Source: Patescibacteria group bacterium (lineage in GTDB: Bacteria > Patescibacteriota > Minisyncoccia > Phycocordibacterales > PALSA-1337). From it: a stretch of 47,229 nucleotides of DNA. The position numbers were made by a program, and so were the translations under genes. Positions 3,929 to 43,899 of the stretch are shown one piece after another (position 1 is the stretch's first letter; each line of letters opens with the position of its first letter). The stretch covers positions 79,738 through 126,966 of the forward strand of contig JBBTTD010000001.1 of the NCBI GenBank assembly GCA_038064415.1, read 5' to 3'. The notes under the pieces were generated by a model. It made no database searches. It worked only from the letters and a program-made list of their open reading frames with translations, and was not told where the DNA came from.

Positions 3929-4840
3929 ATGAAAGACTACTACAAAATCCTTGGCCTTGATAAAAACGCCTCAAAAGACGACATAAAAAAGGCGTTTCGT
4001 AAAATGGCACACGAGCATCATCCAGACAAAACAAAAGGCCATGCTGGATCAGAACAGAAATTCAAAGAAGCTAGCGAGGCATATTCAGTATTGTCGGATG
4101 ATAACAAGCGCGCGCAATACGACCGATTCGGTTCGGCTGGACCTAGCGGAGGAGCGGGTTTTAATGCCGGTCAAGGTGGTTTTGGTAGCAAAGGATTCGG
4201 AGGTTTTGATTTCTCTGGTTTTCAAAATGGCGGATTTAATTTCAATCAAGGTGGCGTAGAATTTGACCTCGGAGATATTTTTGGTGAATTTTTTGGGGGT
4301 GGAAGCAGACGCGCGCATAAAGGTAGAAATATTACCATAGATGTTGAAATCTCATTCAAAGATTCTATTTTTGGCATAGAAAAAGAAATATCAGTGAATG
4401 GCTCAAAATTTTCTATAAAAATTCCCGCTGGAATAGAAAGTGGCCAAGGATTGCGCGTGGCAGGGAAGGGTGAAAATGGTCAAGGTGGCAAAGGCGATCT
4501 TATTGTGCGCATTTGGGTCAAAGAACATGGTGTATTTCGTAAAGAAGCATTTAATTTGATCATGGAATTACCAATCAAACTTACTTTGGCTTTGACTGGC
4601 GGTTCTGTAGATATTGAAACTCTAGATGGAAAATTGGAGGTTAAAATTCCTACTGGCACTTCTCATGGAGAAATTTTACGAATCAAAGGAAAAGGAGTGC
4701 CATATGAGACAACTGGTACCATATTTGGCACCGGTGGTAGACGCGGAGATCTTTTAATTGTTACACATGTTGAAATGCCAAAAAAGTTGAGTAGAAAGGC
4801 GAAGGAATTGATTGATGAGTTAAAAAGGGAAGGAATCTAG
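3929..4840 (+). CDS. dnaJ: DnaJ-family co-chaperone lacking the zinc-finger region
   Basis: KDYYKILG, HPD motif, G/F-rich linker and C-terminal domains; no CxxCxGxG. Confidence 0.9.
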   Translation: MKDYYKILGLDKNASKDDIKKAFRKMAHEHHPDKTKGHAGSEQKFKEASEAYSVLSDDNKRAQYDRFGSAGPSGGAGFNAGQGGFGSKGFGGFDFSGFQNGGFNFNQGGVEFDLGDIFGEFFGGGSRRAHKGRNITIDVEISFKDSIFGIEKEISVNGSKFSIKIPAGIESGQGLRVAGKGENGQGGKGDLIVRIWVKEHGVFRKEAFNLIMELPIKLTLALTGGSVDIETLDGKLEVKIPTGTSHGEILRIKGKGVPYETTGTIFGTGGRRGDLLIVTHVEMPKKLSRKAKELIDELKREGI

Positions 4841-4863: not shown

Positions 4864-4894
4864 AGTTAGCCAAGTAATCTGCTATAATGGTCCC

Positions 4895-5938
4895 ATGAAA
4901 AAAGTATTGCTCTCTGGAGTCAAACCAACTGGCATCGCACATATTGGCAATTATTTTGGCGCAATGAAACAGTTTGTAGGTTTGCAGAACTCTGGTAAAT
5001 ACCAGTGCTATTTTATGATTGCCGACTATCATGGCCTCAATCTTATTCAAGACAAAGAACAGATGAAGAAATTGACACTAGAACTTGCTATTGATTACCT
5101 CGCTATTGGGTTAGATCCAAAAGCATCTGTACTTTTTAGACAGAGCGATGTTTCAGCTCACACAGAATTAACATGGATTTTTGATAGCATAGTCCCTATT
5201 GCCTATCTTGCCCGCGCTCACGCATTTAAAGCTGCTGTAGAAAAATTCAATGACATAGCACCCGCACAAAGATCTCTCGCGTCTAAATTAGAACAATTAG
5301 CCGATGTCAGTGTCGGCACTTTCAATTATCCAGTTTTAATGGCGGCTGACATATTACTCTATGACACAGATGTCGTGCCGGTTGGTCAAGATCAAAAACA
5401 GCATGTGGAATACGCTCGAGATATTGCTTTAAAGTTTAATGATATTTTTGGTGGACCAAAAGACTCCAAGAACAATCCAAGTTCGCCAGTTTTTAAACTA
5501 CCTGAACATCTAATCATAAAAGATGTTGCGGTTGTGGCTGGAATTGACGGTCGAAAGATGTCAAAGAGTTATGGCAACACTATCTCATTATTCGCCGAAC
5601 GAGATGAAATAATTAAATCAGTGATGAGTATTGTCACTGACTCAAACGGACCTGAGAGCGGGGGCATTCCGACAAATGTTTACAATATTCATAAACTTTT
5701 TAGAAGTGAGGGGGACTTGAAAGAATTGTATGAAGCTAATAAAGGAAAATACAAGATACTCAAGGAGGCGCTGATTGAAGATGTTGATACTTTTCTGAAA
5801 CCACTTCGTGAAAGACGCGCGAGATTGGCGCGGAACGAAAAAGCCGTTGTTGAAATTTTAAAAGATGGCGGTCTGCGTGCCAAAGAAATAGCTGATAGAA
5901 AATTAATTGAAATCAAGAAAAGCATTGGAGTATTATAG
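4895..5938 (+). CDS. trpS: Tryptophan--tRNA ligase
   Basis: HIGN, YPVLMAADIL, VPVGQDQKQH and KMSKS motifs. Confidence 0.97.
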   Translation: MKKVLLSGVKPTGIAHIGNYFGAMKQFVGLQNSGKYQCYFMIADYHGLNLIQDKEQMKKLTLELAIDYLAIGLDPKASVLFRQSDVSAHTELTWIFDSIVPIAYLARAHAFKAAVEKFNDIAPAQRSLASKLEQLADVSVGTFNYPVLMAADILLYDTDVVPVGQDQKQHVEYARDIALKFNDIFGGPKDSKNNPSSPVFKLPEHLIIKDVAVVAGIDGRKMSKSYGNTISLFAERDEIIKSVMSIVTDSNGPESGGIPTNVYNIHKLFRSEGDLKELYEANKGKYKILKEALIEDVDTFLKPLRERRARLARNEKAVVEILKDGGLRAKEIADRKLIEIKKSIGVL

Positions 5939-6725: not shown

Positions 6726-7295
6726 ATGAATTTATCCCAACAAATTGAAGCTATACTTTTTTGGAAAGCAGAACCTGTGGCTATAAAAAAATTAGCGGTA
6801 TTTCTGAATGTGGATGTACCGACGATAAAGACTGGGCTAACTGAATTAGAAAATATTTTGAGTGGTAGAGGAATCACTTTGGTCCAGACAAATGATGATG
6901 TAATGCTTGGTACCGCAAAAGAACTATCACCACTAATTGAAAAATTAACGAGAGAAGAATTGACCAAGGATTTAGGAAAAGCCAGTCTGGAGACTATCTC
7001 AATAGTTCTTTATCAAGGACCAATATCGCGATCCGAAATTGATTACATCCGCGGAGTAAACTCACAATTTATTTTGCGAAATCTACTCATTCGTGGATTA
7101 GTTGAACGCATCCCCAATCCAAAAGACGCACGAAGCTATCTTTACAAACCAACTCTGGAATTACTCTCTCATCTAGGCACATCCAAAATTGAAGAGTTGC
7201 CAGAGTATCAGCAAGTTAGAGAAGAGATTGAATCTTTTAAAGTAAATGTAAATCAATCACAAAAACAAGAAGAAGTAATGGGTCAAGAACTATAA
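6726..7295 (+). CDS. scpB: SMC-Scp complex subunit ScpB
   Basis: IEAILF, LETISIVLYQGPISRSEIDYIRGVNS; start moved to ATG 6726. Confidence 0.95.
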   Translation: MNLSQQIEAILFWKAEPVAIKKLAVFLNVDVPTIKTGLTELENILSGRGITLVQTNDDVMLGTAKELSPLIEKLTREELTKDLGKASLETISIVLYQGPISRSEIDYIRGVNSQFILRNLLIRGLVERIPNPKDARSYLYKPTLELLSHLGTSKIEELPEYQQVREEIESFKVNVNQSQKQEEVMGQEL

Positions 7296-7299
7296 TGCC

Positions 7300-8400
7300 A
7301 TGTCCTCAAATACCAAACCAATTGACCGTTTTTTTCTTCTCTCAATAGTTGTCTTGACGATTGCCGGATTCGTAATATTCCTATCCGCTTCACTCGGTCT
7401 TTTAGCACAAACTGGGGTGAATTTTGGCACGATCGCTTTGAAACAAACGATTAGTTTGGTGATTGGTATTATTTTGTTCATTATTTTTTCTAGATTTTCA
7501 TATCACAAAATTAGGAAGTTAGCTTTTTGGGGATTTATTATCGCAATCGGTGTCAATCTACTCTTATTTATTCCTAGTTTGTCACTCTACCATGGCGGGG
7601 CGACTCGCTGGATAGATATCAGCTTTATTTCATTTCAACCATCCGAATTATTAAAAATTACTTTTATTATATATTTAGCGGCTTGGATACATTTTGCTAA
7701 AGATCGAATCAAAACTTTCAAATTTGGTCTTTTACCATATATGATTATTATGGGCATATTGAGTTTGCTTCTGCTTGTTCAATCGGATACCGATACCTTA
7801 TTGGTTATTGGTTTTACAGGTATCATGATGCTCTTTATCGCTGGTTTGCCACTCAAACATACAATTATTAGCGGACTTTTGATGGCTTCAGTCGTCGTTG
7901 GAGTCATTTGGTTTCGCACGGATGCTTTGGAGCGTGTAAAAGTTTTTTTAAATCATTCTACTGACCAACAAGGAGCTGGCTATCAAATCAATCAGTCACT
8001 TATTGCGATTGGTTCTGGACAGATCACTGGACGCGGAGTTGGTCAAAGTATTCAAAAATTCGGTTATCTACCTGAACCAATTGGCGACTCTATTTTTGCC
8101 GTCGCGGCTGAAGAATTCGGCTTTGTTGGTAGTTCAATCTTACTTGTATTGTATATTTTGTTGGCGATCAGTTCTTTTAGAGTCGGTACGCGAGCGCGAG
8201 ATAATTTTGGTGGAATCGTGGCAATAGGCATTGCGATCTTGATAATTATCGAATCCTTCATGAACATTGGCGCAATGCTCGGCGTCATACCGCTATCAGG
8301 TATGCCTTTGTTGTTTGTCTCTCATGGTGGTACGGCCTTGGTGATTATTTTGGCGGCTACTGGAATAGTCGCGAATGTTTCGAGATATCCAAAAGAGTAG
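7300..8400 (+). CDS. ftsW: SEDS peptidoglycan glycosyltransferase FtsW
   Basis: Multi-TM; GATRWI, FQPSELLK, GYQINQS, LPEPIGD; upstream of murG. Confidence 0.88.
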   Translation: MSSNTKPIDRFFLLSIVVLTIAGFVIFLSASLGLLAQTGVNFGTIALKQTISLVIGIILFIIFSRFSYHKIRKLAFWGFIIAIGVNLLLFIPSLSLYHGGATRWIDISFISFQPSELLKITFIIYLAAWIHFAKDRIKTFKFGLLPYMIIMGILSLLLLVQSDTDTLLVIGFTGIMMLFIAGLPLKHTIISGLLMASVVVGVIWFRTDALERVKVFLNHSTDQQGAGYQINQSLIAIGSGQITGRGVGQSIQKFGYLPEPIGDSIFAVAAEEFGFVGSSILLVLYILLAISSFRVGTRARDNFGGIVAIGIAILIIIESFMNIGAMLGVIPLSGMPLLFVSHGGTALVIILAATGIVANVSRYPKE

Positions 8401-8408
8401 TTATCTGC

Positions 8409-8524
8409 AAGCAAGAAGTGGGTGCGCATTTTCATGAGGGACCGTTATAACTGCCTCGCGCTCTGTGCCAAGAGACTGCGGTCCCTCATGAAAATGCGCA
8501 CCCACTTCTTGCTTACTTCCATCA
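8409..8524. repeat. Long-hairpin element E1 (36-bp perfect inverted arms)
   Basis: 8409-8444 is the exact reverse complement of 8479-8514; 34-nt loop. Confidence 0.92.
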
Positions 8525-8551
8525 CTATCAAATTCTGCTATAATAGTAGCC

Positions 8552-9685
8552 ATGAAAATCCTTTTTACTGGCGGAGGCTCGGGTGGACATTTTTACCCAA
8601 TAATTGCGATCGTTGAGGCTTTACATGAGCGGGTCAAGGAGCGTAAAATTATCTCACCTCAACTTTATTACATGGCTCCAAGCCAATACAATGCTCGAGC
8701 TCTTTTTGATAATGAGATTGAGTTTGTCAGCGTGTCAGCGGGAAAGATTCGAAGGTATTTTTCATTATTGAATATTACCGATGCATTCAAGACCGCGTTT
8801 GGATGTCTCTCTGCTTTGTTAAGCTTGTTTCGAATTTACCCCGATGTTGTTTTCGGTAAAGGCGGTTATGCTAGTTTTCCAACTCTTTTTGCGGCAAAAA
8901 TTTTGAGAATACCGGTAGTTATCCATGAATCAGATAGTAAACCGGGCAGAGTAAATGTTTGGGCAGCCAAGTTTGCTCGTAAAATCGCAATATCGTATCC
9001 AGATGCGGCGATATATTTTCCCAAGAAAGATGGCTTGGTAGCCATGACTGGTTGTCCGATTCGCGCGGAACTTGCGCAACCACTTTCCAATGGCGCGCAT
9101 GAATTTTTGAAATTAGAAAAAAATACTCCAGTAGTTTTAATTCTCGGTGGTTCTCAAGGTTCACAAAATATTAATGATGTAATCATTGAGGGATTACCAG
9201 AATTGTTAAATAAATATCAAATTATCCACCAAACTGGTCGCGACAATCTTGAAGAGATTAAATCAACTTTAGGGGTGATATTGAAAGATCATTCTTATTC
9301 ATATCGTTACCATCCTTTTGATTATTTGAACGAATTGGCTTTGCGAATGTCAGCTGGAGTCGCTGATATCATTGTCTCCCGAGCCGGTTCAACAATTTTT
9401 GAAATCGCGGCCTGGGGTGTGCCTTCTATCATAGTGCCATTACCGACTTCAGTCAGCCATGATCAAACCGAAAATGCTTTCGCTTATGCAAAAACAGGCG
9501 CGGCGTCAGTGGTTGAAGAAAACAATTTGAGCGCGCATATCATCATTGAAGAGATAAACAGAATTTATAATTCACCAGCTATCAAAGAGACCATGCAAAA
9601 ACAAGCTAAGGCCTTTGCACGTCTTGATAGCGCGAGCATTATTGCTGATGCTGTCTTAGATATGGCGCTAGAACATGAAAAATAG
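8552..9685 (+). CDS. murG: Lipid I GlcNAc transferase MurG
   Basis: TGGGSGGHFYP, GKGGYAS, GGSQGS and SRAG motifs. Confidence 0.96.
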   Translation: MKILFTGGGSGGHFYPIIAIVEALHERVKERKIISPQLYYMAPSQYNARALFDNEIEFVSVSAGKIRRYFSLLNITDAFKTAFGCLSALLSLFRIYPDVVFGKGGYASFPTLFAAKILRIPVVIHESDSKPGRVNVWAAKFARKIAISYPDAAIYFPKKDGLVAMTGCPIRAELAQPLSNGAHEFLKLEKNTPVVLILGGSQGSQNINDVIIEGLPELLNKYQIIHQTGRDNLEEIKSTLGVILKDHSYSYRYHPFDYLNELALRMSAGVADIIVSRAGSTIFEIAAWGVPSIIVPLPTSVSHDQTENAFAYAKTGAASVVEENNLSAHIIIEEINRIYNSPAIKETMQKQAKAFARLDSASIIADAVLDMALEHEK

Positions 9686-9804
9686 GAAACTATATCAGAT
9701 ATTTGTCAAGCATGTTTAATATTGCGCAATAGTTTCAAATATGTGCTATACTGCTAATCTAAAACTGTCGAATTATTAGCTTTAATAAATAATTTATAAA
9801 GAAT

Positions 9805-10308
9805 ATGGAACCTCAAAGTGGTATCAAAACATGGCAGTGGGTAGTGACCGTCATAGTCATAATTGTCCTTATTATCATAGGTATTATGGTTTTTGGGAAT
9901 AAGAGTACATCAACAATAACAGAAGAGACAGCTACACCAGCTGAAGAAACAACCTCTTCAACAGAAATCAATCGAATCGTTGTCTCAGATCAATTTCCTG
10001 GAAACGTTGTGAATATTTCATCAGTGCTTTTGGCAAACGGCGGTTGGGTTGAAATTCACGCTGACAAGAACGGTCAACCTGGCGACTATATTGGATCGGC
10101 TTATTTTACCAAGGGTATCAATACTGGCAAGATTACTTTGACTAAGTCTACTGTTGAAGGCGGTATTTACTATGCTATGCTTCACTCTGACGATGGCGAC
10201 AAGAAATTTGACACGACCAAGGATCTCCCTATCAAGGATTCCAAAGGCAACATCATTATGAAGTTGTTCCGTGTTTCAGCTACTGTTGACGCTGGAATCA
10301 AGGGATAA
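9805..10308 (+). CDS. Membrane-anchored hypothetical protein with an extracellular beta domain
   Basis: N-terminal TM, Thr/Glu linker, GGWVEIH..YAMLHSDDGD. Confidence 0.8.
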   Translation: MEPQSGIKTWQWVVTVIVIIVLIIIGIMVFGNKSTSTITEETATPAEETTSSTEINRIVVSDQFPGNVVNISSVLLANGGWVEIHADKNGQPGDYIGSAYFTKGINTGKITLTKSTVEGGIYYAMLHSDDGDKKFDTTKDLPIKDSKGNIIMKLFRVSATVDAGIKG

Positions 10309-10340
10309 TAAAATAAAAGTCACAAATCTTAAACTAAAAC

Positions 10341-10372
10341 AAAAGAGGGTCGTCAAGGTGGCGGCTCTTTTT
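10341..10372 (+). terminator. Intrinsic terminator
   Basis: AAAAGAGGGTCGTCA-AGG-TGGCGGCTCTTTTT imperfect stem plus T-run. Confidence 0.6.
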
Positions 10373-10430
10373 GTAATATGATTTGACACAGGTCTATCAC
10401 GCGTCAAAGTTTTTATGGTATAATTTATAT

Positions 10431-11402
10431 ATGTCAAAACAAATCTATATTACTCGCATTATTCCAGAAATCGCGGAGAAAATGCTCCGCGAAAAAGGTT
10501 ACGAAGTAGATATATATCCAGAAGATCGCATTCCCAAAAAACAAGAAATAATTCAGGCATTAAAAAACAAACAATATGACGCGGTAATTTCATTACTCAC
10601 GGATAAAATTGACTCTGAAGTATTTGATTCCGCGCCAACGGTAAAAATCTACGCCAATTATGCCGTTGGTTTTGATAATATTGACGTGGCAGAAGCCAGG
10701 AAACGCAATATCGTCGTGACAAATACCGCCGGAAATTATTCTTTTTGTATTGCTGAGCACGCTATGGCTTTAATACTTGGTTTAGCGACACGAATCGTTG
10801 AAGCTGACGATTTTGTCCGAAAAGGGAAGTACAAGGGCTGGGCGCCGATGAACTTTATTGGCCATGATATCAAGGGTATGAAGATTGGACTTATTGGGGC
10901 GGGAAAAATTGGCGCGGAAATGGCCAGAATTGCTTCGCGCGGTTTTGATATGAAAGTTATATATCATGATGTCAACCGCAATGAAAATATTGAAAGGAAA
11001 TACGGCGCACAATATTTGGAGACAATTGAGGATGTTTTAAAACAAGCTGATGTCGTTACTCTTCATGTTCCTCTACTTGATTCAACCTATCACTTGATTA
11101 ATGAGATTCGTCTAAAAATGATGAAACCCAGTAGTTATCTGATCAACACTTCCCGAGGACCTGTCGTGGATGAGAATGCTTTAGTCAAAGCGCTTCAAGA
11201 TGGAGTAATCAAAGGTGCAGGATTGGATGTCTTTGAGTTTGAACCAAAATTAGCCAAAGGCTTAAGCGATTTACCAAATGTCATTCTCACACCACACATC
11301 GCTTCTGCCAGCGAAGAGACTCGCAATGAAATGGCTAGAATTGTCGCACAAAATGTTATTGACTTCTTAGAGACCGGTAAAGCTACGGCTACAGTTAATT
11401 AA
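10431..11402 (+). CDS. D-2-hydroxyacid dehydrogenase (glyoxylate reductase-like)
   Basis: AVGFDNID, GAGKIG, LINTSRGPVVDE, LDVFEFEP and TPHIAS motifs. Confidence 0.92.
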   Translation: MSKQIYITRIIPEIAEKMLREKGYEVDIYPEDRIPKKQEIIQALKNKQYDAVISLLTDKIDSEVFDSAPTVKIYANYAVGFDNIDVAEARKRNIVVTNTAGNYSFCIAEHAMALILGLATRIVEADDFVRKGKYKGWAPMNFIGHDIKGMKIGLIGAGKIGAEMARIASRGFDMKVIYHDVNRNENIERKYGAQYLETIEDVLKQADVVTLHVPLLDSTYHLINEIRLKMMKPSSYLINTSRGPVVDENALVKALQDGVIKGAGLDVFEFEPKLAKGLSDLPNVILTPHIASASEETRNEMARIVAQNVIDFLETGKATATVN

Positions 11403-11485
11403 ATCGTGTGTCCTGTTATTGTATGGGACTATCTATTCATTAGGCAAATAACTTCACAAGCTCAATTATTTGCTATAATAGGGTC

Positions 11486-12862
11486 ATGAAAGTCGTAACC
11501 CGATTCGCGCCATCGCCCACAGGCTATTTTCACGCCGGTTCATATCGCACCGCGCTTTTTTCGTGCATTTTTGCCAGACAAAATCTGGGCAAATTTATTT
11601 TACGAATAGAAGACACGGATAAAGAAAGATCAAAAAAAGAATATGAAGAAAATATTATTGAGAGCTTAAAATGGCTCGGACTTGATTATGATGAGTTTTA
11701 TAGGCAATCCGACAGAATAGAAGTCTATAAAAAATACATAAAACGATTAATTGAAAGTGGTAATGCTTATGTTTCTTCCGCTGAAGATGAAGAAAAGAGA
11801 TACTTGGGCAAAGAAGGAAAAGAATCACAAAGTGAAAAGTCCACGCCAAAATCAAGTGTCATTCGTTTTAAAAACCCAAACAAAAAAGTTATTTTTGAAG
11901 ACATGATTCGCGGTCGGATAGAATTTGATACCACAGAACTAGGTGATTTTGTGATTGCCAAAAACGAAGATGAGCCAGTTTTTCACTTAGTGGTTGTTGT
12001 AGATGACCATGAAATGGGTATTACTCACATTATTCGTGGTGAGGATCATATTTCCAATACACCTCGCCAGATCCTCATATTTGAGGCCCTAAGCATAAAA
12101 CCACCTCAGTACGCTCATATACCGCTTCTTTTGGCGCCAGATCGTTCAAAGCTCTCTAAACGCAATGGCGCTATACCTATTAGTGACTATCGCAGTAAGG
12201 GCTACTTATCACAAGCAGTGGTCAATTATCTTACTTTGCTCGGCTGGCATCCTTCTGATAATAAAGAAATCTTCGGGATGGAAGATATTTTAAAGGAGTT
12301 CTCACTTAATCGAGTTCAAAAAAGTGGGGCTATCTTTGACGAGGAAAAACTCAAATGGTTCAATCGACAATATATTGCCAAACTTTCCGACGCTGATTTC
12401 TCTGAACACACCAAGGCGTTTCTTCCAGAATGGGTAGCGCCAAAGAGCGACATAATTAAAAAACTAATCCCGATACTCAAAGATAAAATCATGACATTTG
12501 GAGAAGTTTCAGATATGCTCGCGGCAAATGGAGAGCTTGGTTTTATTCATTGTTTATCGGAATACAAGAAAGAATCGTTGCTCTGGAAAAAAAATCCTGA
12601 TGTTGATTCAGCCAAAAAACATCTTACGGAAGTTTCTAGATTGTTTTCAAAAGTCGCTTCAGTCCAGTTTACGATTGTTAACATCAAATCGGAAGTTTGG
12701 TCATACGCTGAAACCAATGGTAAAGGCGATGTATTATGGCCTTTACGAATGGCTCTAACAGGGCAAGACAAATCACCTGATCCATTTGTTTCCGCGGAAC
12801 TGCTTGGTAGGGAAGAGTCTTTGAAGCGCATAGAAATTGCTTTGAGTAAGTTAATAAACTAG
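11486..12862 (+). CDS. gltX: Glutamate--tRNA ligase
   Basis: TRFAPSPTG, LRIEDTD, IIRGEDH and KLSKR motifs. Confidence 0.96.
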   Translation: MKVVTRFAPSPTGYFHAGSYRTALFSCIFARQNLGKFILRIEDTDKERSKKEYEENIIESLKWLGLDYDEFYRQSDRIEVYKKYIKRLIESGNAYVSSAEDEEKRYLGKEGKESQSEKSTPKSSVIRFKNPNKKVIFEDMIRGRIEFDTTELGDFVIAKNEDEPVFHLVVVVDDHEMGITHIIRGEDHISNTPRQILIFEALSIKPPQYAHIPLLLAPDRSKLSKRNGAIPISDYRSKGYLSQAVVNYLTLLGWHPSDNKEIFGMEDILKEFSLNRVQKSGAIFDEEKLKWFNRQYIAKLSDADFSEHTKAFLPEWVAPKSDIIKKLIPILKDKIMTFGEVSDMLAANGELGFIHCLSEYKKESLLWKKNPDVDSAKKHLTEVSRLFSKVASVQFTIVNIKSEVWSYAETNGKGDVLWPLRMALTGQDKSPDPFVSAELLGREESLKRIEIALSKLIN

Positions 12863-12866
12863 GAAA

Positions 12867-14147
12867 ATGAGCATGAAAAGGGCTCAAAACCCAATTACTT
12901 TAGCAATCGTTTTATTGTTTGTGCTTTTTTCTGCAAAAGCATACTCCCAAACTATAACTGAACTCCAATCTAAAATTAATTTACGCAATCAAGATATTAA
13001 GGCTTTAGAGAAAGAAATAGCCGATTATCAGAGTCAAATTGGAGATTTAAGCTTACAAGTCTCATCTTTATCAGCAACAATCAAATCATTGGAATTGACT
13101 CAAAAGAAACTTGAAGCCAACATTAAGATCACGGAAAATAAAATTGTTGAAAAAAATATTGAAATTCAACAACTTGGTTCACAAATTTCAGACAAAAAAG
13201 ACACAATCGCCGAAGATAGACGGATAATTTCACAATCATTTGCCACAATGAACGAATTGGGTACAAAATCACTACCAGAATTGCTTTTATCTGAAAAATC
13301 ACTCTCTAGCGCATGGAACTCAATTGACGAAATCGGAACCGTACAAAAAAGTTTAGCTGATAGAATTACCAGTCTTAGAGCAGTTAAAGCTAATCTGGAA
13401 ACTAATAAAAAAGCCACTGAAAAAGCTAAAAACGACTTACTAGTACTCAACAATCAGTTAAAAGACCAGCGAAGCGTCGTCTTAAGCACGACTGCAGAAA
13501 AAAATAAATTACTGAAAGAGACGAAACAATCTGAAGCAGAGTATCAGAAAATTTTAGCCAACAAAAAGGACCTAAAGGACTCGTTTGAAAGGGAAGTGCT
13601 AGATTATGAATCGCAATTGCGCTTAGCTGTTGACCCGACAAAAATACCTCACTCTGGTTCTGGAGTCTTGGCTTGGCCTTTAGATTCAATAAAAATTACC
13701 CAATATTTTGGCAATACTGATTTTGCCACCGCTAGTCCGCAGATTTATAATGGAAAAGGGCATACCGGAATAGATTTCCGCGCTTCAATTGGAACTCCGG
13801 TCAAAGCAACACTACATGGAGTTGTTGTTGGTGTCGGTAATACAGATCTTGTCTCAGGATGCTATTCTTATGGTAAATGGGTTATGATCAAGCACCCAAA
13901 CGGCCTCTCAACTCTCTACGCGCATTTTTCATTACCAACAGTTACCACTGGTCAAGAAGTTACTACTGGCCAAGTCATTGGTTATAGTGGAAACACTGGT
14001 TATACTACTGGTCCACATCTTCATTTTGGGGTTTATGCTACTCAAGGTGTTCAAATTACTAAGCTTACAAATAGTAAAAACTGCAGGAATGCCGTGATAC
14101 CTCTCGCTGATTTCAGTGCATATCTTAATCCACTTTCTTATCTTTAG
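12867..14147 (+). CDS. Coiled-coil M23 (LytM) peptidoglycan endopeptidase
   Basis: Signal peptide, long coiled coil, HTGID and GPHLHF Zn motifs. Confidence 0.92.
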   Translation: MSMKRAQNPITLAIVLLFVLFSAKAYSQTITELQSKINLRNQDIKALEKEIADYQSQIGDLSLQVSSLSATIKSLELTQKKLEANIKITENKIVEKNIEIQQLGSQISDKKDTIAEDRRIISQSFATMNELGTKSLPELLLSEKSLSSAWNSIDEIGTVQKSLADRITSLRAVKANLETNKKATEKAKNDLLVLNNQLKDQRSVVLSTTAEKNKLLKETKQSEAEYQKILANKKDLKDSFEREVLDYESQLRLAVDPTKIPHSGSGVLAWPLDSIKITQYFGNTDFATASPQIYNGKGHTGIDFRASIGTPVKATLHGVVVGVGNTDLVSGCYSYGKWVMIKHPNGLSTLYAHFSLPTVTTGQEVTTGQVIGYSGNTGYTTGPHLHFGVYATQGVQITKLTNSKNCRNAVIPLADFSAYLNPLSYL

Positions 14148-14170
14148 AAATCAAGGTCCGACCTTGATTT
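14148..14170. repeat. AGGT-N3-ACCT hairpin
   Basis: AAATCAAGGT-CCG-ACCTTGATTT. Confidence 0.75.
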
Positions 14171-14197
14171 ATCTAAATAATGCGCTAAAATTAGATC

Positions 14198-14512
14198 ATG
14201 AATAAAATACCTCAAAATAAGGGATTGGTCAGAGCTGTTATTGTTATTGTTATTGCTTTACTCATCTTAAGCTATTTAGGTATCAATATAAGGTCAATTG
14301 TTAACTCTCCAGCTGGTCAGGAAAACTTCAATTACACCCAGGAGGTCATCCTTAATGTCTGGAATAACTATCTAAAAGGACCCGCGACTTATCTCTATAA
14401 TGATATTTTCATCAAACTTATTTGGGATCCAGCTATTGAGAGTCTGACGAGAATAAAAAATGGTCAACCGACGAACATTGATCAAAGCGCACCTACGATA
14501 AAGATAGAGTGA
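14198..14512 (+). CDS. Small membrane-anchored hypothetical protein
   Basis: NKGLV followed by a hydrophobic TM segment; followed by a terminator-like hairpin. Confidence 0.75.
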   Translation: MNKIPQNKGLVRAVIVIVIALLILSYLGINIRSIVNSPAGQENFNYTQEVILNVWNNYLKGPATYLYNDIFIKLIWDPAIESLTRIKNGQPTNIDQSAPTIKIE

Positions 14513-14680
14513 CATTCATAAAAATAGTAACAAACAGGGGACCCGTCAAGCAGATGAGTCCTTTTTACCTATCTAGATACTGAAGTTAAGATATATTGTG
14601 CGACATCGTATATCTAGAAGGAATTATGGGTCAACTACCAATAATTAACTCTCCTCCCTGTTGGTAAGTCTCTTTCAGTC

Positions 14681-14720
14681 AAACAAAAAGCTCCACAAAT
14701 TGTGTGAAGCTTTTTGTTTT
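14681..14720. terminator. Bidirectional intrinsic terminator
   Basis: AAACAAAAAGCTCCAC..GTGAAGCTTTTTGTTT between convergent genes. Confidence 0.7.
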
Positions 14721-14750
14721 TCTTGTCTCAAAAAAATGAGATCAACTAAA

Positions 14751-15227
14751 TTATTTTCTAGCCAAATCACCCAACTTTGATTTTGACCAACATGAAGCTG
14801 AAGCTGACCATGGACTTGAACCGTATTTACCGTAAAGGTATTTGGCAAAAGCCACATTACCCTCTACAGTATGAATGTCTAGACCCATGTTACGAGCAGT
14901 ATCAGCATGATAGAACTCATTAATTTGCATCAGACCAACATCGGCAGGATTGGCAAGACCGCGAACGACCTTGCCATTCTTATCAAATTGTCGGAATTCT
15001 GATTCACAACGAGCAATTTCCACTAGAATAGGCATTTCTGCGTATTCTTGGTGAAGATATGATTTCATAGTTGAAGTTGAGTTTGTGGTTTCCAATGAGC
15101 GAATTTGAGTTGTAGTTGCCTGTTCTGATTCCTTATTAGCGTTAATCGTCTTGATGTGATTATCGCTTTGTCCAGAACCATAGAGAGACGACACAAGAAA
15201 GATCACACCAGTTGTAAGTTCAAACAT
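14751..15227 (-). CDS. Secreted lysozyme-fold/lytic transglycosylase-like protein
   Basis: Signal-like N-terminus; IARCES (catalytic Glu), GLMQINE, SSPW. Confidence 0.8.
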   Translation of the reverse strand: MFELTTGVIFLVSSLYGSGQSDNHIKTINANKESEQATTTQIRSLETTNSTSTMKSYLHQEYAEMPILVEIARCESEFRQFDKNGKVVRGLANPADVGLMQINEFYHADTARNMGLDIHTVEGNVAFAKYLYGKYGSSPWSASASCWSKSKLGDLARK

Positions 15228-15286
15228 AACACAATTAAAAAACGAAGGTATTAGTCATGAGACTAACGCTTTCGTTTTATGAGACA

Positions 15287-15315
15287 AGTGTAGCACCTCT
15301 GTCTACAAAAGTCAA
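15287..15315 (-). promoter_or_regulatory. Promoter of the transglycosylase gene
   Basis: Minus strand TTGACT-17-TACACT with TG extension. Confidence 0.65.
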
Positions 15316-15327
15316 GTCTTTATTAGC

Positions 15328-15357
15328 TAAAATATGGCTCTGTTGAGCCATATTTTA
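15328..15357. repeat. 13-bp perfect hairpin
   Basis: TAAAATATGGCTC-TGTT-GAGCCATATTTTA. Confidence 0.75.
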
Positions 15358-15403
15358 CACCATAAATAGCTATATTTAGAGCCATTTTATCGGTTTTGAG
15401 ATT

Positions 15404-15428
15404 TTTAGCGAGGTGAGACCTCGCTAAA
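15404..15428. repeat. AGGT-N3-ACCT hairpin
   Basis: TTTAGCGAGGT-GAG-ACCTCGCTAAA. Confidence 0.78.
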
Positions 15429-15484
15429 CTTGCGCTTTTGTAACCTCTATGTTAGACTTTCCGAACTAATTAAGTAATACCAAT

Positions 15485-15757
15485 ATGGCACACAAGAAAG
15501 CGGCGGGTACAACTAAAAACGGTCGTGATTCAAACCCAAAATACTTAGGTGTTAAGGTTAATCATGGTCAAAGTATTGGTATTGGTCAGATTATTCTCCG
15601 TCAGCGCGGTACTACTTGCCTACCAGGTAGGAATGTTGGTGTCGGTAAGGACTATACCCTGTTTGCTCTAAAAAAAGGCACAGTTGAATTTACCTCAAAA
15701 CGAAAAACTGGATTTAACAATGACATTTTGAGAAAGAAAGTTGTGCATGTAAAATAG
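15485..15757 (+). CDS. rpmA: 50S ribosomal protein L27
   Basis: [20 protein letters not shown]. Confidence 0.98.
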
Positions 15758-15779
15758 TCCGCAGGTTTATCCTGTGAAA

Positions 15780-16223
15780 TTATATTTTCTCAATCACCAC
15801 CTTAAACTTCACCGACTTCCCTCCCCCTTTTACTTCAATCGTATGTTCACCAACTTCTTTGAGTGGATGTTCCAACTGAATAAAGTCCGGATCAACTTGG
15901 AGTCTAGTCTGCTTTTCAATTTCTATTGCGATTGCTTCTTTATGAAGACCTGCAAAAAGATGACCCTTATCGTTGGCTTTACTGATAATCGTAAGAATAA
16001 TATCTTTTAGTCCTTCAATATTTTTTACCAGAAGTTCTTGATGAATTTTTCGTTCACCTTCAAGAGCTAACTTCTGCACTTCAATACGCTTCACAGCGTC
16101 TTTAGTCGCGGCAATTGCCAGTCCTTGAGGGATGAGTAAATTGATGGCGTGACCATCACTTACTTCCTTTGTGTCAAACTTTTTTCCCAGTTTCGCAATG
16201 TCTTTAAGTAATATTATTTTCAT
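15780..16223 (-). CDS. rplI: 50S ribosomal protein L9
   Basis: MKIILLKDIAKLGK..VSDGHAINLLIP. Confidence 0.96.
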   Translation of the reverse strand: MKIILLKDIAKLGKKFDTKEVSDGHAINLLIPQGLAIAATKDAVKRIEVQKLALEGERKIHQELLVKNIEGLKDIILTIISKANDKGHLFAGLHKEAIAIEIEKQTRLQVDPDFIQLEHPLKEVGEHTIEVKGGGKSVKFKVVIEKI

Positions 16224-16226
16224 TTT

Positions 16227-17429
16227 TTACTTATTTAATAACTCAATCACTTTATTCATCTGCGCATCATTCTTGGTTTGAATATCTTTGTCTGTCAGCT
16301 CAATTTTGTAATCCGGCTCAAGCCCATCATGAGACAAGTTGTGTCCATTTGGAGTCAACCAGCGAGCGATTGTGACTTTAAGTGAAGTGTCAGATGTAAG
16401 TGAGACTAATTCTTGAACTGATCCTTTACCAAAAGTTTTAGCTCCGACAAGTTTTGCAACGCCATTTTCCTGTAACGCACCCGCCAAAATCTCCGCCGCC
16501 GAAGCTGAACCGCCATCTACTAGTATCAGCATTTTTAGTTTATCCGTAAAGACATCATAGCCTTTACTGCGATATATTTTTGGATCTCCATTCTTGCCGA
16601 AATCTTCAGTGACAACGGTCTTTCCTAATGGTAAGAACCATGAAGACATGTCCCATGCGGCATCTAGATAACCACCTGGATTACCACGTAAATCAAGAAC
16701 TAACTTGTGATTGCCGGAAAGAATAAACTCTCGTAAGGCGTTTCTGAACAAATTGGCTGATTGAGCAGTAAAACTATAAAGACGAATGACGCTAATACCG
16801 CCCGGTTTAGTACTTGTTTCAAGTGTTGGAATATCAATAACATCACGAATAATTGAACGCTCTATTGGCTTTGATGAGTTTTGAGGTAAGAATAATATTT
16901 TTACCATCGTTCCCTTTTTACCTCTGATCAATTTTACAGCCGCATCAACGGGCATATCACTGGTTACTTTGTCGTCTATTTTTAGAATCAAATCACCCGT
17001 CTTTACTCCAGCACGATTAGCGGGACTATTTTTTAAAGGAGAAACAACTTGAAGTTGTTTATTTTTGATTCCAATTTCCATACCGACACCTTCAAAGTTT
17101 CCAGAAATATCATCTTGAAACATCTTTGCTTCTTCAGGCGGGAAAAATACTGTATAAGGATCGCCGTAGGAAGATGCCAGGCCTTGGATAGAACCCCAGA
17201 TTTTATCTTGGGGAGTGGTACTTGCCGCGGCCACGAATTTTTCATCAAGAATATGCCAAGCTTTCCAGAATGGAGCAAATTGATCTGTGGTAACGGCACT
17301 AGTATCATCCAGACTTGAATTTGGCGCATAGGACTTCCCTTCCCCAAAATACATTCCAGCTAAAAAAGCAATAATCACCGCGGGTAGTCCGATAAGAAGT
17401 ATGATCAGTTTGCGATCTTTAATATTCAT
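16227..17429 (-). CDS. ctpA: S41 carboxy-terminal processing protease with PDZ domain
   Basis: DPYT, DLRGNPGG, SASAAEI and TFGKGSVQ motifs. Confidence 0.93.
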   Translation of the reverse strand: MNIKDRKLIILLIGLPAVIIAFLAGMYFGEGKSYAPNSSLDDTSAVTTDQFAPFWKAWHILDEKFVAAASTTPQDKIWGSIQGLASSYGDPYTVFFPPEEAKMFQDDISGNFEGVGMEIGIKNKQLQVVSPLKNSPANRAGVKTGDLILKIDDKVTSDMPVDAAVKLIRGKKGTMVKILFLPQNSSKPIERSIIRDVIDIPTLETSTKPGGISVIRLYSFTAQSANLFRNALREFILSGNHKLVLDLRGNPGGYLDAAWDMSSWFLPLGKTVVTEDFGKNGDPKIYRSKGYDVFTDKLKMLILVDGGSASAAEILAGALQENGVAKLVGAKTFGKGSVQELVSLTSDTSLKVTIARWLTPNGHNLSHDGLEPDYKIELTDKDIQTKNDAQMNKVIELLNK

Positions 17430-17542
17430 AAAAATAATTGTCTGGGTATTATTACATATATTGATAAAAGAACCAACTAGTGCGTCTTACAAGGGTATAA
17501 TTAGGTATTTTCTTTTTCTATATTCCTCGCTATAATACTCCC

Positions 17543-18469
17543 ATGATTACTCATCACGCTTCTCGAGGTCTAGTCTGGCTTGATATTTTGTCACCAAATG
17601 ACGAAGAAATTGCTGGCCTAGTTAAACGCTATTCTCTACATCCACTGGTCGGTGAAGAGCTTAAAAGTTCTTCATCTCTGGCAAAAATTGATTTCTACAA
17701 AGATTACATCTTAGTCGTTCTAACTTTACCGGTTAGGGTGCGTAAAGATGACTCTTACGAAATCGTTGATCGCGAGGTTGATTTTGTTATTGGCAAAAAT
17801 TTTTTGATTACATCCCGCTTTGACACTATTGAACAGTTGGAATATTTCGCAAAAATTTTTGAAGCAAATTCAATTCTTAATAAGGAGGAGAAAATGGAGC
17901 ATGCCGGCCATCTTTTTTACTACATGGTTAAGCGCATATACGCGGGAATGTGCGAGGATTTGGAAAATATCAAAGACTCCTTGGTCACAGCTGAAACTCA
18001 TATCTATAAAGGCGACGAAAGAAAAATGGTTGAGGCGCTTTCAAATTTGAGTCGTGAACTTATTGATTTCAAACAAACCGCTCGCGTTCACGAAGAAATC
18101 TGGGCCGATATGATCGGATATGATGAAACGAGTATATTTGGCAAAGATTTTACCGTATATATGCGTGATATGCGCGATGAGTTCAATCGCATCCGTGAAT
18201 TGATCAGCAACGCCCGCGAGTTGTTGGCTGATTTACGCCAGACAAACGATTCATTATTAAACACAAAACAAAATGAGATCATCAAAGTCTTAGCTATAGT
18301 TTCATTTATTTTCAATCCTTTAATATTCATCACTTCCCTGTTTACTATTCCTGCCGCTTCAGTGCCTATTGTCGGACATAGTTGGGGTTGGACAGCGTTA
18401 TTTATCTTTATGCTTTTGATTTCAGCTGGCATCTGGTGGTATTTCAAGAAGAAAAAGTGGGTAGAGTAA
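17543..18469 (+). CDS. corA: CorA-family cation transporter (GMN motif absent)
   Basis: WLDI, LHPL, helical stalk, QNEIIKVL and two C-terminal TMs. Confidence 0.8.
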   Translation: MITHHASRGLVWLDILSPNDEEIAGLVKRYSLHPLVGEELKSSSSLAKIDFYKDYILVVLTLPVRVRKDDSYEIVDREVDFVIGKNFLITSRFDTIEQLEYFAKIFEANSILNKEEKMEHAGHLFYYMVKRIYAGMCEDLENIKDSLVTAETHIYKGDERKMVEALSNLSRELIDFKQTARVHEEIWADMIGYDETSIFGKDFTVYMRDMRDEFNRIRELISNARELLADLRQTNDSLLNTKQNEIIKVLAIVSFIFNPLIFITSLFTIPAASVPIVGHSWGWTALFIFMLLISAGIWWYFKKKKWVE

Positions 18470-18550
18470 AATGAATAACAAAAAAGCAATAAAATACATG
18501 TGCGCCTTTTGTTGTTTTTTTGTCATATACTTATAATATTCTAGATATTT

Positions 18551-19933
18551 ATGGAAATCAGACTCCACAACACCTTGTCTCAAAAATTGGAAACCTTTAA
18601 GCCCATAAAAAGGGGCTTGGTTTCAATGTACAATTGCGGGCCAACTGTTTACGATTATGCTCACATTGGGAACCTACGCACTTTTATCTTCGCGGATATT
18701 TTACGAAAAACTTTGGAGTACAACTCATACACAGTGCATCAAGTTATGAATATTACGGATGTTGGACATTTAACGACTGACGGCGATGACGGTGATGATA
18801 AAATGACAAGGGCATTAAAACGTGAAAACAAACCGTTTACTCTTGAAGCGATGAGAGAGATAGCGACATTTTATTTTGAAAAATTTGTGGATGACTTAAA
18901 ATCTTTGAATATCAGTTCACCTCAAGAATTTCCTAGAGCCAGTGATAATATTCAAGAAGATATCATTTTTATACAAGAACTAGAAAAAAAGGGGTTAACT
19001 TATAAAATCAGTGGCGGTATTTATTTTGACATATCAAAATTTCCTTCTTATGGAAAATTGGGAAATATTTCTCTTGATTCGCTCAAAGATGGCGCGCGCC
19101 TGACAATCAACCCAGAAAAGAAAAATCCCGCAGACTTCGTACTTTGGAAACTTGATTCAAAAATCGGTTGGAAAAGTCCTTGGGGTGTGGGATTTCCCGG
19201 TTGGCATATTGAATGTTCAGTTATGTCTAGAAAATATCTTGGCCAACCATTTGACATACATACTGGAGGCATAGATCTTATACCTGTCCATCACAACAAT
19301 GAGATTGCCCAATCTGAATCGGCATACAACGAACCACTAGCACATTATTGGATGCATGGTGCCTTTGTTACGGTCAATGACGCTAAAATGGCAAAATCTG
19401 TTGGAGGTTCTATCACTCTCAAAACACTTGAGGATGAAACTATTTCCGCCATCGCCTATCGTTATTGGCTCCTAACCGCCCATTACAGATCACCGATAAA
19501 CTTCAGTTTAGAAGCTGTCCGAGGAGCTCAAAATGCCCTAATACGCCTTATGGTAACCGTAAGTAGTCTTCCTACTGATGGAAAGGTTATTTTGGCCTAT
19601 AAAGACCGTTTTATGGCTTATATCAACGATGATTTGGATACTCCGAAAGCAATAGCGTTGATTTGGGATATTCTCAAGGACAATAATCAATCTGACGCTG
19701 ATAGACGAGCAACTATCATTGATTTTGATAAGGTTTTTGGCTTAAAATTAGATACAATCAAGAAGTCAGAAGATGAGGAAATCCCTGATGAAATAACCGC
19801 TCTTGCTGAAGCGCGCGAAGAAGCTCGCAAAGAAAAAGATTGGGTTAAAGCAGATGCACTCCGAATAGAAATTGAAGCTCGTGGTTTTGTTGTTTCGGAT
19901 ACTCCGAACGGAATAAAGATAACGAATAAATGA
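18551..19933 (+). CDS. cysS: Cysteine--tRNA ligase
   Basis: CGPTVY, HIGN, PGWHIECS and KMAKS motifs. Confidence 0.97.
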   Translation: MEIRLHNTLSQKLETFKPIKRGLVSMYNCGPTVYDYAHIGNLRTFIFADILRKTLEYNSYTVHQVMNITDVGHLTTDGDDGDDKMTRALKRENKPFTLEAMREIATFYFEKFVDDLKSLNISSPQEFPRASDNIQEDIIFIQELEKKGLTYKISGGIYFDISKFPSYGKLGNISLDSLKDGARLTINPEKKNPADFVLWKLDSKIGWKSPWGVGFPGWHIECSVMSRKYLGQPFDIHTGGIDLIPVHHNNEIAQSESAYNEPLAHYWMHGAFVTVNDAKMAKSVGGSITLKTLEDETISAIAYRYWLLTAHYRSPINFSLEAVRGAQNALIRLMVTVSSLPTDGKVILAYKDRFMAYINDDLDTPKAIALIWDILKDNNQSDADRRATIIDFDKVFGLKLDTIKKSEDEEIPDEITALAEAREEARKEKDWVKADALRIEIEARGFVVSDTPNGIKITNK

Positions 19934-20054
19934 TGGAAGCCCAGCGAATGTGTGTATTTTTTTGTCAAAACAAGAGAGTCTTGTCTCGCGAGTCATATAA
20001 CCGCCATCTTTGGATTTGACAAAAAAATACACACATTCGCTGGGCTTCCAATCA
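19931..20054. repeat. Long-hairpin element E2 (36-bp perfect inverted arms)
   Basis: 19934-19969 is the exact reverse complement of 20015-20050; 45-nt loop. Confidence 0.92.
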
Positions 20055-20058
20055 AGCA

Positions 20059-20304
20059 TCATTCTTTTATTCTTACAAAATCTCTGAACTCTTCCCTCAC
20101 CTCTCCTAAAGTATCATCAATATCTTGACGACTACTTTCTATTTTGTCATCTATTTCTGCTAATCGTGAATAGATGCGCGATTCAGACGCGTCTATTCTT
20201 TCTTCTAATCGCTCAAAACTTCTGGCAATTGATATCGCTATATCATCGGCGCTTTTATACATAAGACGCTCAATAAGCTCCAGATCTTTTTGATCTAATG
20301 ACAT
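20059..20304 (-). CDS. Small acidic coiled-coil hypothetical protein
   Basis: 81-aa ORF with a heptad pattern. Confidence 0.7.
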   Translation of the reverse strand: MSLDQKDLELIERLMYKSADDIAISIARSFERLEERIDASESRIYSRLAEIDDKIESSRQDIDDTLGEVREEFRDFVRIKE

Positions 20305-20374
20305 GGTAATAAACTTAAAACTTTCTATATTTGACTGAATATAGATTTAGTAATAAGTTCAACCTATCAGAGTA

Positions 20375-20418
20375 AGATCAAGAAATGATAAAGATCTGAT
20401 CAAGATTTGATCAAGATT
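20375..20418. repeat. 4 x 11-bp direct repeat (TGATCAAGATT)
   Basis: AGATCAAGAAA TGATAAAGATC TGATCAAGATT TGATCAAGATT. Confidence 0.8.
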
Positions 20419-20451
20419 GGAGAATGTGGTGAAATTGTGAAGGTCAGGCCT

Positions 20452-24541: not shown

Positions 24542-24571
24542 TGTGTCATTCCCGCGAAGGCGGCAATGACA
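24542..24571. repeat. GTCATTCCCGC REP-like palindrome
   Basis: TGTCATTCCCGC-GAAG-GCGGCAATGACA. Confidence 0.75.
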
Positions 24572-24575
24572 AATA

Positions 24576-25457
24576 CTATTTTTCTACTAGCACCCATCTC
24601 ATTTGATAAATATTCACGGGCGGAGCAAAAAGAACTGTCTCAAAAGCTTGGGTTGGATCAGAAAGCACCATGAAAACTATGCCGAATGGCTTATCATTCA
24701 AAGCTGAATTAATGACAAAATCTCCTTCTTTTACGCTGGTATCACGAGAAATTTGAGCTTCATATTGTCCTCCACCACGACCAATAGCGGTTGCCGGAAT
24801 ATGTTCCGCGCCAATCAATACCTCATACTTTTCCCCAGGTGAAGAAAATAATTTTACTTTTGCTGTTGACGGCAAGATATCAACGACACGACCAATTAGA
24901 ACATTACCAACCGCGTAGATTAGACTGCTAGTAGAAAGATTGTAATCTCGTCCAATATCAATAATCAATCCGTCATACGGTAAAAATGGCGGTCGTTTGA
25001 GGACGGCGGACAGAATTCGTGATTCCAATTCTTTTGAAGTCATTTTAGAAATGAAAGAATATTTTGGAACCACATAGATAGTGGATGTCCCTGTTGAACT
25101 AGGATTAATAATTGATTCTACAATGAACGATTCTCGTCCCAAGAGACTTTTTAGTTCAGTGTTTTCCAATTCAATGGCCTGAATTGCGTCCAACCTGACT
25201 TGAGCATCAGTTAGTTGACGTTTGAGTCCTTCATTTTGATTGAGTAAAGATTCTGAAGACCGCAAAGACCCACTTAAAACAGAAAACTCCGTTCGCCAAA
25301 ATGGTCTAGCTAAACTTGTAAAAATAGAAGCAAAAAAATGCGGAGTGGATATTTGTAAAAGAACTATAATCACAACCAAAACCGCAATAGTGTAACCTAC
25401 GACACGAGCTCGACTCCGATATGGACGATTATGAGTTTGAAGGTAAGTCATCTTCAC
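24576..25457 (-). CDS. mreC: Rod shape-determining protein MreC
   Basis: TM, coiled coil ENTELKSLLG, IIDIG, LIGRV; follows mreB (ATG at 25451 also possible). Confidence 0.88.
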   Translation of the reverse strand: MKMTYLQTHNRPYRSRARVVGYTIAVLVVIIVLLQISTPHFFASIFTSLARPFWRTEFSVLSGSLRSSESLLNQNEGLKRQLTDAQVRLDAIQAIELENTELKSLLGRESFIVESIINPSSTGTSTIYVVPKYSFISKMTSKELESRILSAVLKRPPFLPYDGLIIDIGRDYNLSTSSLIYAVGNVLIGRVVDILPSTAKVKLFSSPGEKYEVLIGAEHIPATAIGRGGGQYEAQISRDTSVKEGDFVINSALNDKPFGIVFMVLSDPTQAFETVLFAPPVNIYQMRWVLVEK

Positions 25458-37611: not shown

Positions 37612-37648
37612 GAACGAAATGTACCATAAATCAGGAACTAGGCAATGT

Positions 37649-43132: not shown

Positions 43133-43147
43133 ATATAAATTCGTAAA

Positions 43148-43896: not shown

Positions 43897-43899
43897 TAT

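Follow-up and report, generated by a model that had tools for sequence, protein, structure and literature searches.

Two long hairpin elements, E1 and E2, each follow a stop codon in a region of housekeeping genes of a Patescibacteria (Paceibacteria/Parcubacteria-type) genome, and in both of them 36 bp arms pair without a single exception. The window, as used here, is the whole 47 229 nt stretch of DNA that was analysed. Our leading, tentative reading is that E1 and E2 represent a genome-specific palindromic element of the REPIN/MITE kind whose arms would be homogenised by replication template switching, and which sits in the terminator slot and probably serves, or is tolerated, as a 3′-end hairpin. 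On this view, a small palindromic insertion, non-coding and approximately 115–125 bp long, is present in two copies that have since diverged, and each would have entered a gap just behind a stop codon that had until then been minimal. The nascent strand would fold back during replication and use one arm as the template for the other, a template switch within a quasipalindrome. Any change confined to a single arm would then be either erased or copied across, leaving the arms to drift between copies while staying perfect within each copy, and the stem could also lengthen outwards into flanking DNA. On transcription, the element would form a 3′-UTR hairpin of −70 to −80 kcal/mol where the genome normally has a short terminator, and such a hairpin would probably block read-through or 3′ exonucleases.

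Genes in the window are ordered grpE-dnaK-dnaJ-trpS-scpA-scpB-ftsW-E1-murG-DUF7282-dehydrogenase-gltX-M23, then, further on, corA-cysS-E2 followed by the minus-strand genes x81 (encoding 81 aa), lysS and greA. Pfam confirmed the identities of ftsW and murG on either side of E1, and GltX is 71–74% identical to its best public relatives. For the 2-hydroxyacid dehydrogenase ORF, the true start probably lies downstream of the listed TTG (10383-10430): the alignment with relatives begins only at Met 17 (MSKQIYITR), which would make the gap between the DUF7282 gene and the dehydrogenase approximately 122 nt. Several other loci in the window merit a mention in their own right. A restriction-modification island (43678-46122) comprises a short helix-turn-helix-like ORF upstream (43678-43896), a TaqI-like endonuclease (43900-44607) and, on the minus strand (44599-46122), an unusual 507-aa fusion of a LexA DNA-binding domain with an S24 peptidase and an N6/N4 DNA methyltransferase. 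A 1995-aa protein with LamG-like, DUF4082, InlB B-repeat-like and Big_7 domains (26720-32707, minus strand) is probably a surface protein. Two MreB paralogues are encoded on the minus strand (25429-26493 and 36598-37680), one within an mreB-mreC-PBP2 cluster and the other adjoining murA.

The features of E1 and its surroundings are as follows.

8398-8400, plus strand: stop codon TAG of ftsW, 8 nt before E1
8404-8408, plus strand: TCTGC, possible left copy of a 5 bp target-site duplication of E1 (weak; read from the sequence)
8409-8444, no strand assigned: E1 left arm, 36 nt, 36/36 Watson–Crick with 8479-8514
8445-8478, plus strand: E1 loop, 34 nt, 53% GC, containing GTTATAAC, CTCGCG and CAAGAGA
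8479-8514, no strand assigned: E1 right arm, 36 nt, 100% complementary to the left arm
8515-8533, plus strand: possible 3′ tail of the E1 insertion, judged against empty sites in relatives
8516-8524, plus strand: E1 foot motif CTTCCATCA (reverse complement of TGATGGAAG), unpaired in E1
8536-8544, plus strand: murG extended −10 promoter TGCTATAAT, 7 nt before the ATG at 8552, in leaderless layout

The foot motif of E1 is found on one side only. A second TCTGC stands at 8534-8538, adjoining the murG −10 box, and we calculate the chance of such a match as approximately 0.03–0.06. Deleting 8409-8533 together with one TCTGC copy would restore the TCTGCTATAAT promoter context that is usual in this genome, and the pair may be a 5 bp target duplication.

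E2 is laid out in the following way.

19931-19939, plus strand: TGATGGAAG, made up of the cysS stop codon TGA (19931-19933) and the first 6 nt of the E2 left arm
19934-19969, no strand assigned: E2 left arm, 36 nt, perfect, with an imperfect inner extension to 19977
19970-20014, minus strand: E2 loop, 45 nt (29 nt counting imperfect inner pairs), whose minus-strand reading is colinear with the E1 loop
20015-20050, no strand assigned: E2 right arm, 36 nt, perfect, with the extension running from 20007
20045-20054, plus strand: x81-side foot CTTCCAATCA, which pairs with TGATGGAAG except for one bulged A
20059-20061, minus strand: stop codon TGA of the conserved 81-aa gene convergent on cysS

E2 follows the cysS TGA without a gap and stops 8 nt short of the TGA of the 81-aa gene; as the original prediction had noted, each element comes right after a stop codon. 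Its feet read TGATGGAAG on one side and CTTCCA(A)TCA on the other, and beyond the bulge it pairs only the 3 nt cysS stop codon. The extended arms (19934-19977 and 20007-20050) measure 44 nt, of which 41/44 are paired with one further G.T wobble, enclosing the 29 nt loop. No target-site duplication was seen at E2 on inspection of the sequence.

Throughout the cores of E1 and E2 every pair (72/72) is Watson–Crick, with no G.T or G.U, and the original observation of 36 bp perfect inverted arms in both elements is confirmed at 36/36 in each. The longest perfect inverted repeat with a loop of up to 110 nt reached 10–13 bp in 50 shuffles of the window, against the 36 bp observed. As RNA, the elements fold with −71 to −82.5 kcal/mol (z −11.8 to −13.3; 0/200 shuffles as stable), and with DNA parameters at approximately −48 kcal/mol (z −12.9 and −13.9). 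Each whole element is one long hairpin, with paired changes between the copies. The possibility that the loop is a decayed central palindrome was rejected, as approximately 4 of 17 axis positions pair in E1 (by eye).

E1 and E2 are related. A global alignment of the loop, right arm and foot of E1 (plus strand) with E2 (minus strand) gave 49 identities (approx. 61%; z 5.3, p ≈ 0.001 from 2000 shuffles, in tests run after the similarity had been noticed), while the opposite relative orientation gave p 0.99. This upholds the original observation that the E1 minus strand and the E2 plus strand are colinear. Single parts are weak when taken alone (loop local alignment p 0.056, arm global alignment p 0.10, half-element local alignment p ≈ 0.04). 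Among 156 half-element comparisons of 13 hairpins, E1–E2 ranks as the top pair. Both loops contain GTTATA..TG.CTCGCG and also CAAGA. The 9-mer TGATGGAAG stands at the stem foot of both elements (8516-8524, minus strand; 19931-19939, plus strand) and occurs three times in the window against 0.42 expected. Across 1.22 Mb it was found 13 times against approximately 9 expected, and only two of its window copies adjoin a strong hairpin. We take E1 and E2 to be copies of a single element that have diverged to approximately 61% identity, a modest similarity. Since these related copies occupy unlinked sites 11.5 kb apart, copying or transposition must have happened at least once.

The loops had been expected to be conserved while the arms diverged, and this was not borne out: loops and arms are each approximately 55–65% identical, and the loops are not clearly better conserved. 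Several more specific interpretations of the shared sequence were tried and rejected. A loop pattern with fixed spacing recovered neither element, owing to a 2 nt indel; an uptake-signal pair is at odds with the background frequency of the 9-mer in relatives (13 against approximately 9 expected); a promoter in the loop (TTGGCA-16 nt-TATAAC on the E1 minus strand) does not keep its spacing, which is 9 nt in E2 and approximately 18–21 nt in the loop of the L013 hairpin described below; and the GC element of a putative sigma-54 box is out of register. A MAFFT alignment of E1 and E2 placed the arms out of pairing register, and covariation statistics are meaningless with only two sequences.

The relatives comprised 80 loci (1.18 Mb in total, given L numbers here) from one GltX scan of public genome contigs, in which synteny is well preserved. 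The genes ftsW and murG are adjacent in 55 loci, with gaps of 5–189 nt in 53 of these; the remaining two gaps are larger and contain extra genes. In L001, L005, L008 and L011, the ftsW stop codon is followed directly by a TG.TATAAT box and ATG, and a MurG and GltX tree (FastTree, 17 taxa, rooted on L002) places L011 as sister to the window genome. At the E2 junction, the cysS/x81 gaps are 15–54 nt in five of six loci. The short gaps of the relatives at both junctions identify E1 and E2 as insertions of roughly 117–133 nt. The presence of a counterpart to E1 between ftsW and murG in relatives, for which the original prediction had proposed a check, came down to a single strong inverted repeat in 55 loci (L018), an ATTCG-rich hairpin unlike E1. 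The sixth cysS/x81 locus, L013, has a long hairpin of 32 bp (two mismatches) whose orientation to the genes matches that of E2. L013 is nested among hairpin-less genomes in the tree, which makes an independent gain as likely as inheritance.

The ftsW-murG junction has other occupants. Whole genes have been gained there in L004 (6443-7027, a serine hydrolase) and L005 (3105-3770, an ORF with no Pfam match), which marks it as a recurrent insertion point. Hairpins or repeats rich in ATTCG(T/C) are seen in or near the gap in L018 (791-915), L013 (approx. 5700-5757, directly upstream of the murG −10 box) and L057 (1261-1336 and 3673-3693), and these perhaps constitute a repeat family or arrayed binding sites.

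A census of 1.22 Mb yielded 155 strong inverted repeats, 126 of which have loops below 20 nt and are of the ordinary terminator type. Approximately eleven hairpins have at least 18 pairs and a loop of at least 30 nt, and the three longest in the census are that of L014 (43/43), E1 and E2. A strict scan (stem at least 18, loop 15–110 nt) returned 20 hairpins, 18 in the 80 loci plus E1 and E2. No third copy of the element was found within the 47 kb window, blastn-short with eight hairpins as queries found no cross-matching hairpin copies in the 80 loci and window, an nhmmer profile of the two loops gave no further match in either, and blastn against phage and plasmid collections matched neither E1 nor E2. 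The best hint across genomes is the resemblance of the E1 loop to that of L013, with a 10-mer in common (p 0.003 before correction, one of 153 pairs), a similarity that the half-element test did not confirm and that does not survive correction for the 153 pairs. The supposition that the loop motifs recur was therefore only partly sustained, in that the two window copies have them in common while the 1.18 Mb of the 80 loci hold no further convincing copy, the best case being the E1 and L013 loops. The hairpins of L014, L025, L004 and L052 were rejected as homologues of E1 and E2, with pairwise p values of 0.02–0.13 among 153–156 comparisons, which is background. The element seems to be confined to this one Paceibacteria genome.

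That the hairpins are products of assembly or amplification, for example fold-back chimeras, seems scarcely credible. The source is probably a metagenome-assembled genome, which is what lends the idea some weight; both hairpins, however, lie well inside the contig between intact syntenic genes whose stop codons are correct, each loop is asymmetric, the two hairpins are related to one another at separate sites, and comparable hairpins occur in independent assemblies (L014, L013, L025 and L004).

The perfection of the arms calls for an explanation of its own. The arms differ between the copies at approximately 40% of positions, yet are flawless in both, and by our own arithmetic this needs homogenisation, since perfection would require less than approximately 1% divergence since the arms were last made perfect. 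With no wobble pairs in the cores, the same divergence points to homogenisation at the level of DNA. The hairpin of L014, from another genome and not shown to be homologous to E1 and E2, is instructive here. Its perfect arms pair over 43/43 bp, and the left arm (4245-4287) includes the last 14 nt of murG, covering part of a Ser codon, then His-Glu-Arg and the stop. Among the 17 sequences compared, 14 keep the C-terminal HE[KR]-stop of MurG, with minor variants in L015, L025 and L026/L002. Given the conservation of these murG 3′ codons, the right arm of L014 carries host coding sequence copied in inverted orientation. Such an arm cannot, on this sequence, be explained by a fixed transposon end, whereas templated copying of one arm from the other can account for it. 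Among inverted repeats of at least 14 pairs outside ORFs, 9 of 72 include at least 6 nt of a gene 3′ end, and L014 is the only one of the nine in which the captured codons are demonstrably conserved; L035 was rejected as a second clean capture because the GltX tail there is not conserved, leaving the case ambiguous.

Replication template switching is reported, in an excerpt of PMC8794818, both to create perfect hairpins and to maintain or repair existing ones, and excerpts of PMC8604942 and PMC13100816 describe homogenisation and expansion of arms by the same route. Hairpins of this quasipalindrome type resemble E1 and E2 in their perfect, exclusively Watson–Crick stems, and L014 in the extension of an arm over host coding DNA. 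Of the alternatives put forward originally, arm-to-arm copying at the DNA level is the one that fits best, given 0/72 G.U pairs and the 43 bp arm of L014 with its murG 3′ end. What template switching does not explain is the source of approximately 120 nt of new, GC-richer DNA at two unlinked sites. A genome lacking the nucleases SbcCD and ExoI/ExoVII would be able to tolerate long palindromes.

A rival account is one in which each hairpin was born in place, with no mobility, when a template switch or fold-back repair made an inverted duplication, and in which the similarity of E1 and E2 is due to chance or composition. The arm of L014 copied from host DNA is in keeping with such an origin, as are the long hairpins of other Paceibacteria loci (18 in the strict scan), which are unrelated and have no cross-similarity, and the lack of any transposase among the ORFs scanned in the window and close loci; template switching can, according to the excerpt of PMC8794818, make a perfect stem in one event. 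Birth in place would nevertheless need a pre-existing arm and loop (70–80 nt) where relatives have gaps of 5–54 nt, and blastn-short found no source sequence for the E1 or E2 arms elsewhere in the window. The elements are also GC-richer than the local intergenic DNA (53% for E1 and 42% for E2, with 47% in the E2 loop, against 32%; the whole window is 39%), and they are colinear at p ≈ 0.001 with an exact 9-mer foot in common. We therefore consider this account unlikely and prefer an inserted element with homogenised arms.

Among known systems, the architecture of E1 and E2 is, by analogy, closest to that of REPINs. These are described in an excerpt of PMC3116915 as long hairpins of approximately 110 bp with frequent compensatory changes, conserved outer ends and a variable paired inner stem. 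The likeness lies in a non-coding, extragenic unit of approximately 100–120 bp that forms one long hairpin and is conserved in its outermost part, here the 9 nt foot. REPINs differ in that each end carries an invariant 16-mer, copies number from tens to hundreds and a RAYT gene accompanies them, whereas E1 and E2 amount to two copies in 47 kb, have 9 nt in common at one or both feet with arms otherwise approximately 55% identical, and come with no RAYT in the DNA examined. The high conservation of inverted REPs among many copies has no counterpart in the window, the arms aligning at p 0.10 with only the 9 nt foot in common. Short REP-like palindromes of a different sequence, TGTCATTCCCGCGAA(A/G)GCGG.AAT, are present as two copies in the window (24545-24572 and 43110-43133) and also in L045 (approx. 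16883); L035 (5856-5931) holds an inverted doublet 26 nt apart that is REPIN-like, and L062 (11396-11492) a similar doublet with the unit GTCATTGCGAG.

Bacterial MITEs such as the Correia and ERIC elements are small intergenic insertions that are transcribed into long hairpins; cleavage by RNase III or a change in mRNA stability can follow. E1 and E2 are likewise small intergenic insertions; in MITEs, however, the terminal inverted repeats are conserved from copy to copy, the target-site duplication has a fixed length and there is a parent IS, and no parent IS was seen in the window or loci. The repetitive hairpin-forming elements of sponge mitochondria, as an excerpt of PMC2800124 presents them, offer a parallel for intergenic invasion of a compact genome, although they belong to another genetic system and are likened by description.

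A recombinase encoded elsewhere might act on the hairpins as single-stranded DNA, either as attC-like sites or as IS200/IS605-type ends (PATE/REP) moved by a Y1 transposase. Their stability under DNA parameters would suit this, as would insertion without a clear target duplication at E2 and a conserved unpaired foot at one end, a feature of tagged REPs in an excerpt of PMC3733652. No linked HUH/Y1 transposase, other transposase or integrase emerged from a domain search of the 43 window ORFs, nor was a transposase, Y1 enzyme or integrase found among 71 non-syntenic ORFs from 14 close loci. These 71 were scanned out of 100 listed non-syntenic ORFs of at least 110 aa from the close loci; the other 29 were omitted for overlap with a longer opposite-strand candidate, contact with a locus edge or colinearity with scanned genes. 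The only recombinase seen was a phage-type integrase in the defence island of L010. The foot is neither GTAG nor CGTC, and the arms are not conserved between copies, unlike the REP sequences in the excerpt of PMC3116915. As for attC sites, their outer ends are marked by the boxes R″ (RYYYAAC) and R′ (GTTRRRY), and they have extrahelical bases and an integrase or cassette array close by. E1 and E2 end instead in AAGCAAG/CTTGCTT and TGGAAGC/GCTTCCA, respectively, and their perfect stems have no extrahelical bases, so the proposed attC likeness does not hold. A role as recombinase substrate is, in our judgement, decidedly improbable.

Two further alternatives place the elements at the RNA level. 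An extended −10 box lies approximately 6–8 nt 5′ of the ATG of x133, trpS, murG, gltX and corA, reading TGCTATAAT at murG and three of the other genes and as the one-base variant CGCTATAAT at corA, often with TC before it.

1090-1107, 4877-4894, 8534-8551, 11466-11485 and 17525-17542: extended −10 boxes of the window

The position of these boxes suggests that leaderless mRNAs are the usual layout. A short-loop hairpin often stands between the preceding stop codon and the box, and elsewhere in the window the layout is stop codon, short hairpin, TGCTATAAT and ATG; the interval between the ftsW stop and the murG promoter, where E1 lies, is thus the usual terminator slot of this genome. E1 and E2 might accordingly be oversized terminators or insulators, ordinary cis elements that evolved under selection on RNA and do not form a repeat family. 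Like Rho-independent terminators, they come directly after stop codons, E1 before the next promoter and E2 between convergent genes; their RNA hairpins are very stable, and some further 3′ hairpins of the window are likewise without a clear U-tract. They differ from such terminators in stem length (36 bp against 5–15) and in loops of 34–45 nt, and, as originally suggested, are much longer than a terminator requires, ordinary terminators of this genome having 11–13 bp stems and 1–15 nt loops. A terminator consensus scan (7000-21000) called neither element, and no T-run follows either stem on either strand on inspection of the sequence. Given no U-tract, no short loop and no call by the scan, a terminator role for E1 and E2 is a guess. 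A 36 bp stem under selection on RNA would, moreover, tolerate G.U pairs and mismatches, and E1 and E2 have none; nearly all relatives lack the elements at these junctions, and the foot and loop motifs common to the two would be left unexplained. We regard the terminator account as quite unlikely.

The second alternative, a structured non-coding or cis-regulatory RNA with the loop as its functional part, had been raised in the original prediction as an unrecognised structured RNA. The GTTATA, CTCGCG and CAAGA motifs of the two loops would fit, the E1 loop resembles that of the L013 hairpin at the E2 site (p 0.003, uncorrected), and E1, E2 and the L013 hairpin are all read in the direction of the upstream gene. 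The cross-genome similarity fails correction for 153 pairs, though, and the loops are no better conserved than the arms. A search of the whole window against Rfam 15 at the gathering threshold returned only a tRNA and no family for E1 or E2. With E values up to 10, the elements drew only models of the microRNA-precursor type, far below threshold, and these generic matches indicate that any covariance model of a long hairpin would match generic hairpins. Together with the lack of wobble pairs and of anything conserved at orthologous sites in relatives, these results do not support a structured RNA, which we consider very unlikely.

The reading of E1 and E2 as inserted palindromic elements, perfected at the DNA level, would make them a modest variation on known bacterial repeats. 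A bolder proposal, which we think improbable, is that Paceibacteria carry self-perfecting palindromic elements without fixed terminal repeats. A half-element of arm and loop would be propagated and its second arm regenerated by fold-back synthesis, such that copies are born perfect, and the stem would grow outwards, even over host codons as in L014. In these minimal genomes, elements of this sort would create terminators and transcription-unit boundaries from nothing.

The practical reach of these findings is limited pending more copies and expression data. The paired changes seen here would mimic a conserved RNA structure, which is a caution for covariation-based RNA discovery, and the elements offer a natural case for studying how template switching may build 3′-end hairpins beside leaderless genes. 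If our preferred reading is right, copying of arms at the DNA level, rather than selection on RNA, can keep stems of 36–43 bp flawless despite drift, and even the compact, transposase-poor genomes of Patescibacteria acquire and keep small hairpin repeats.
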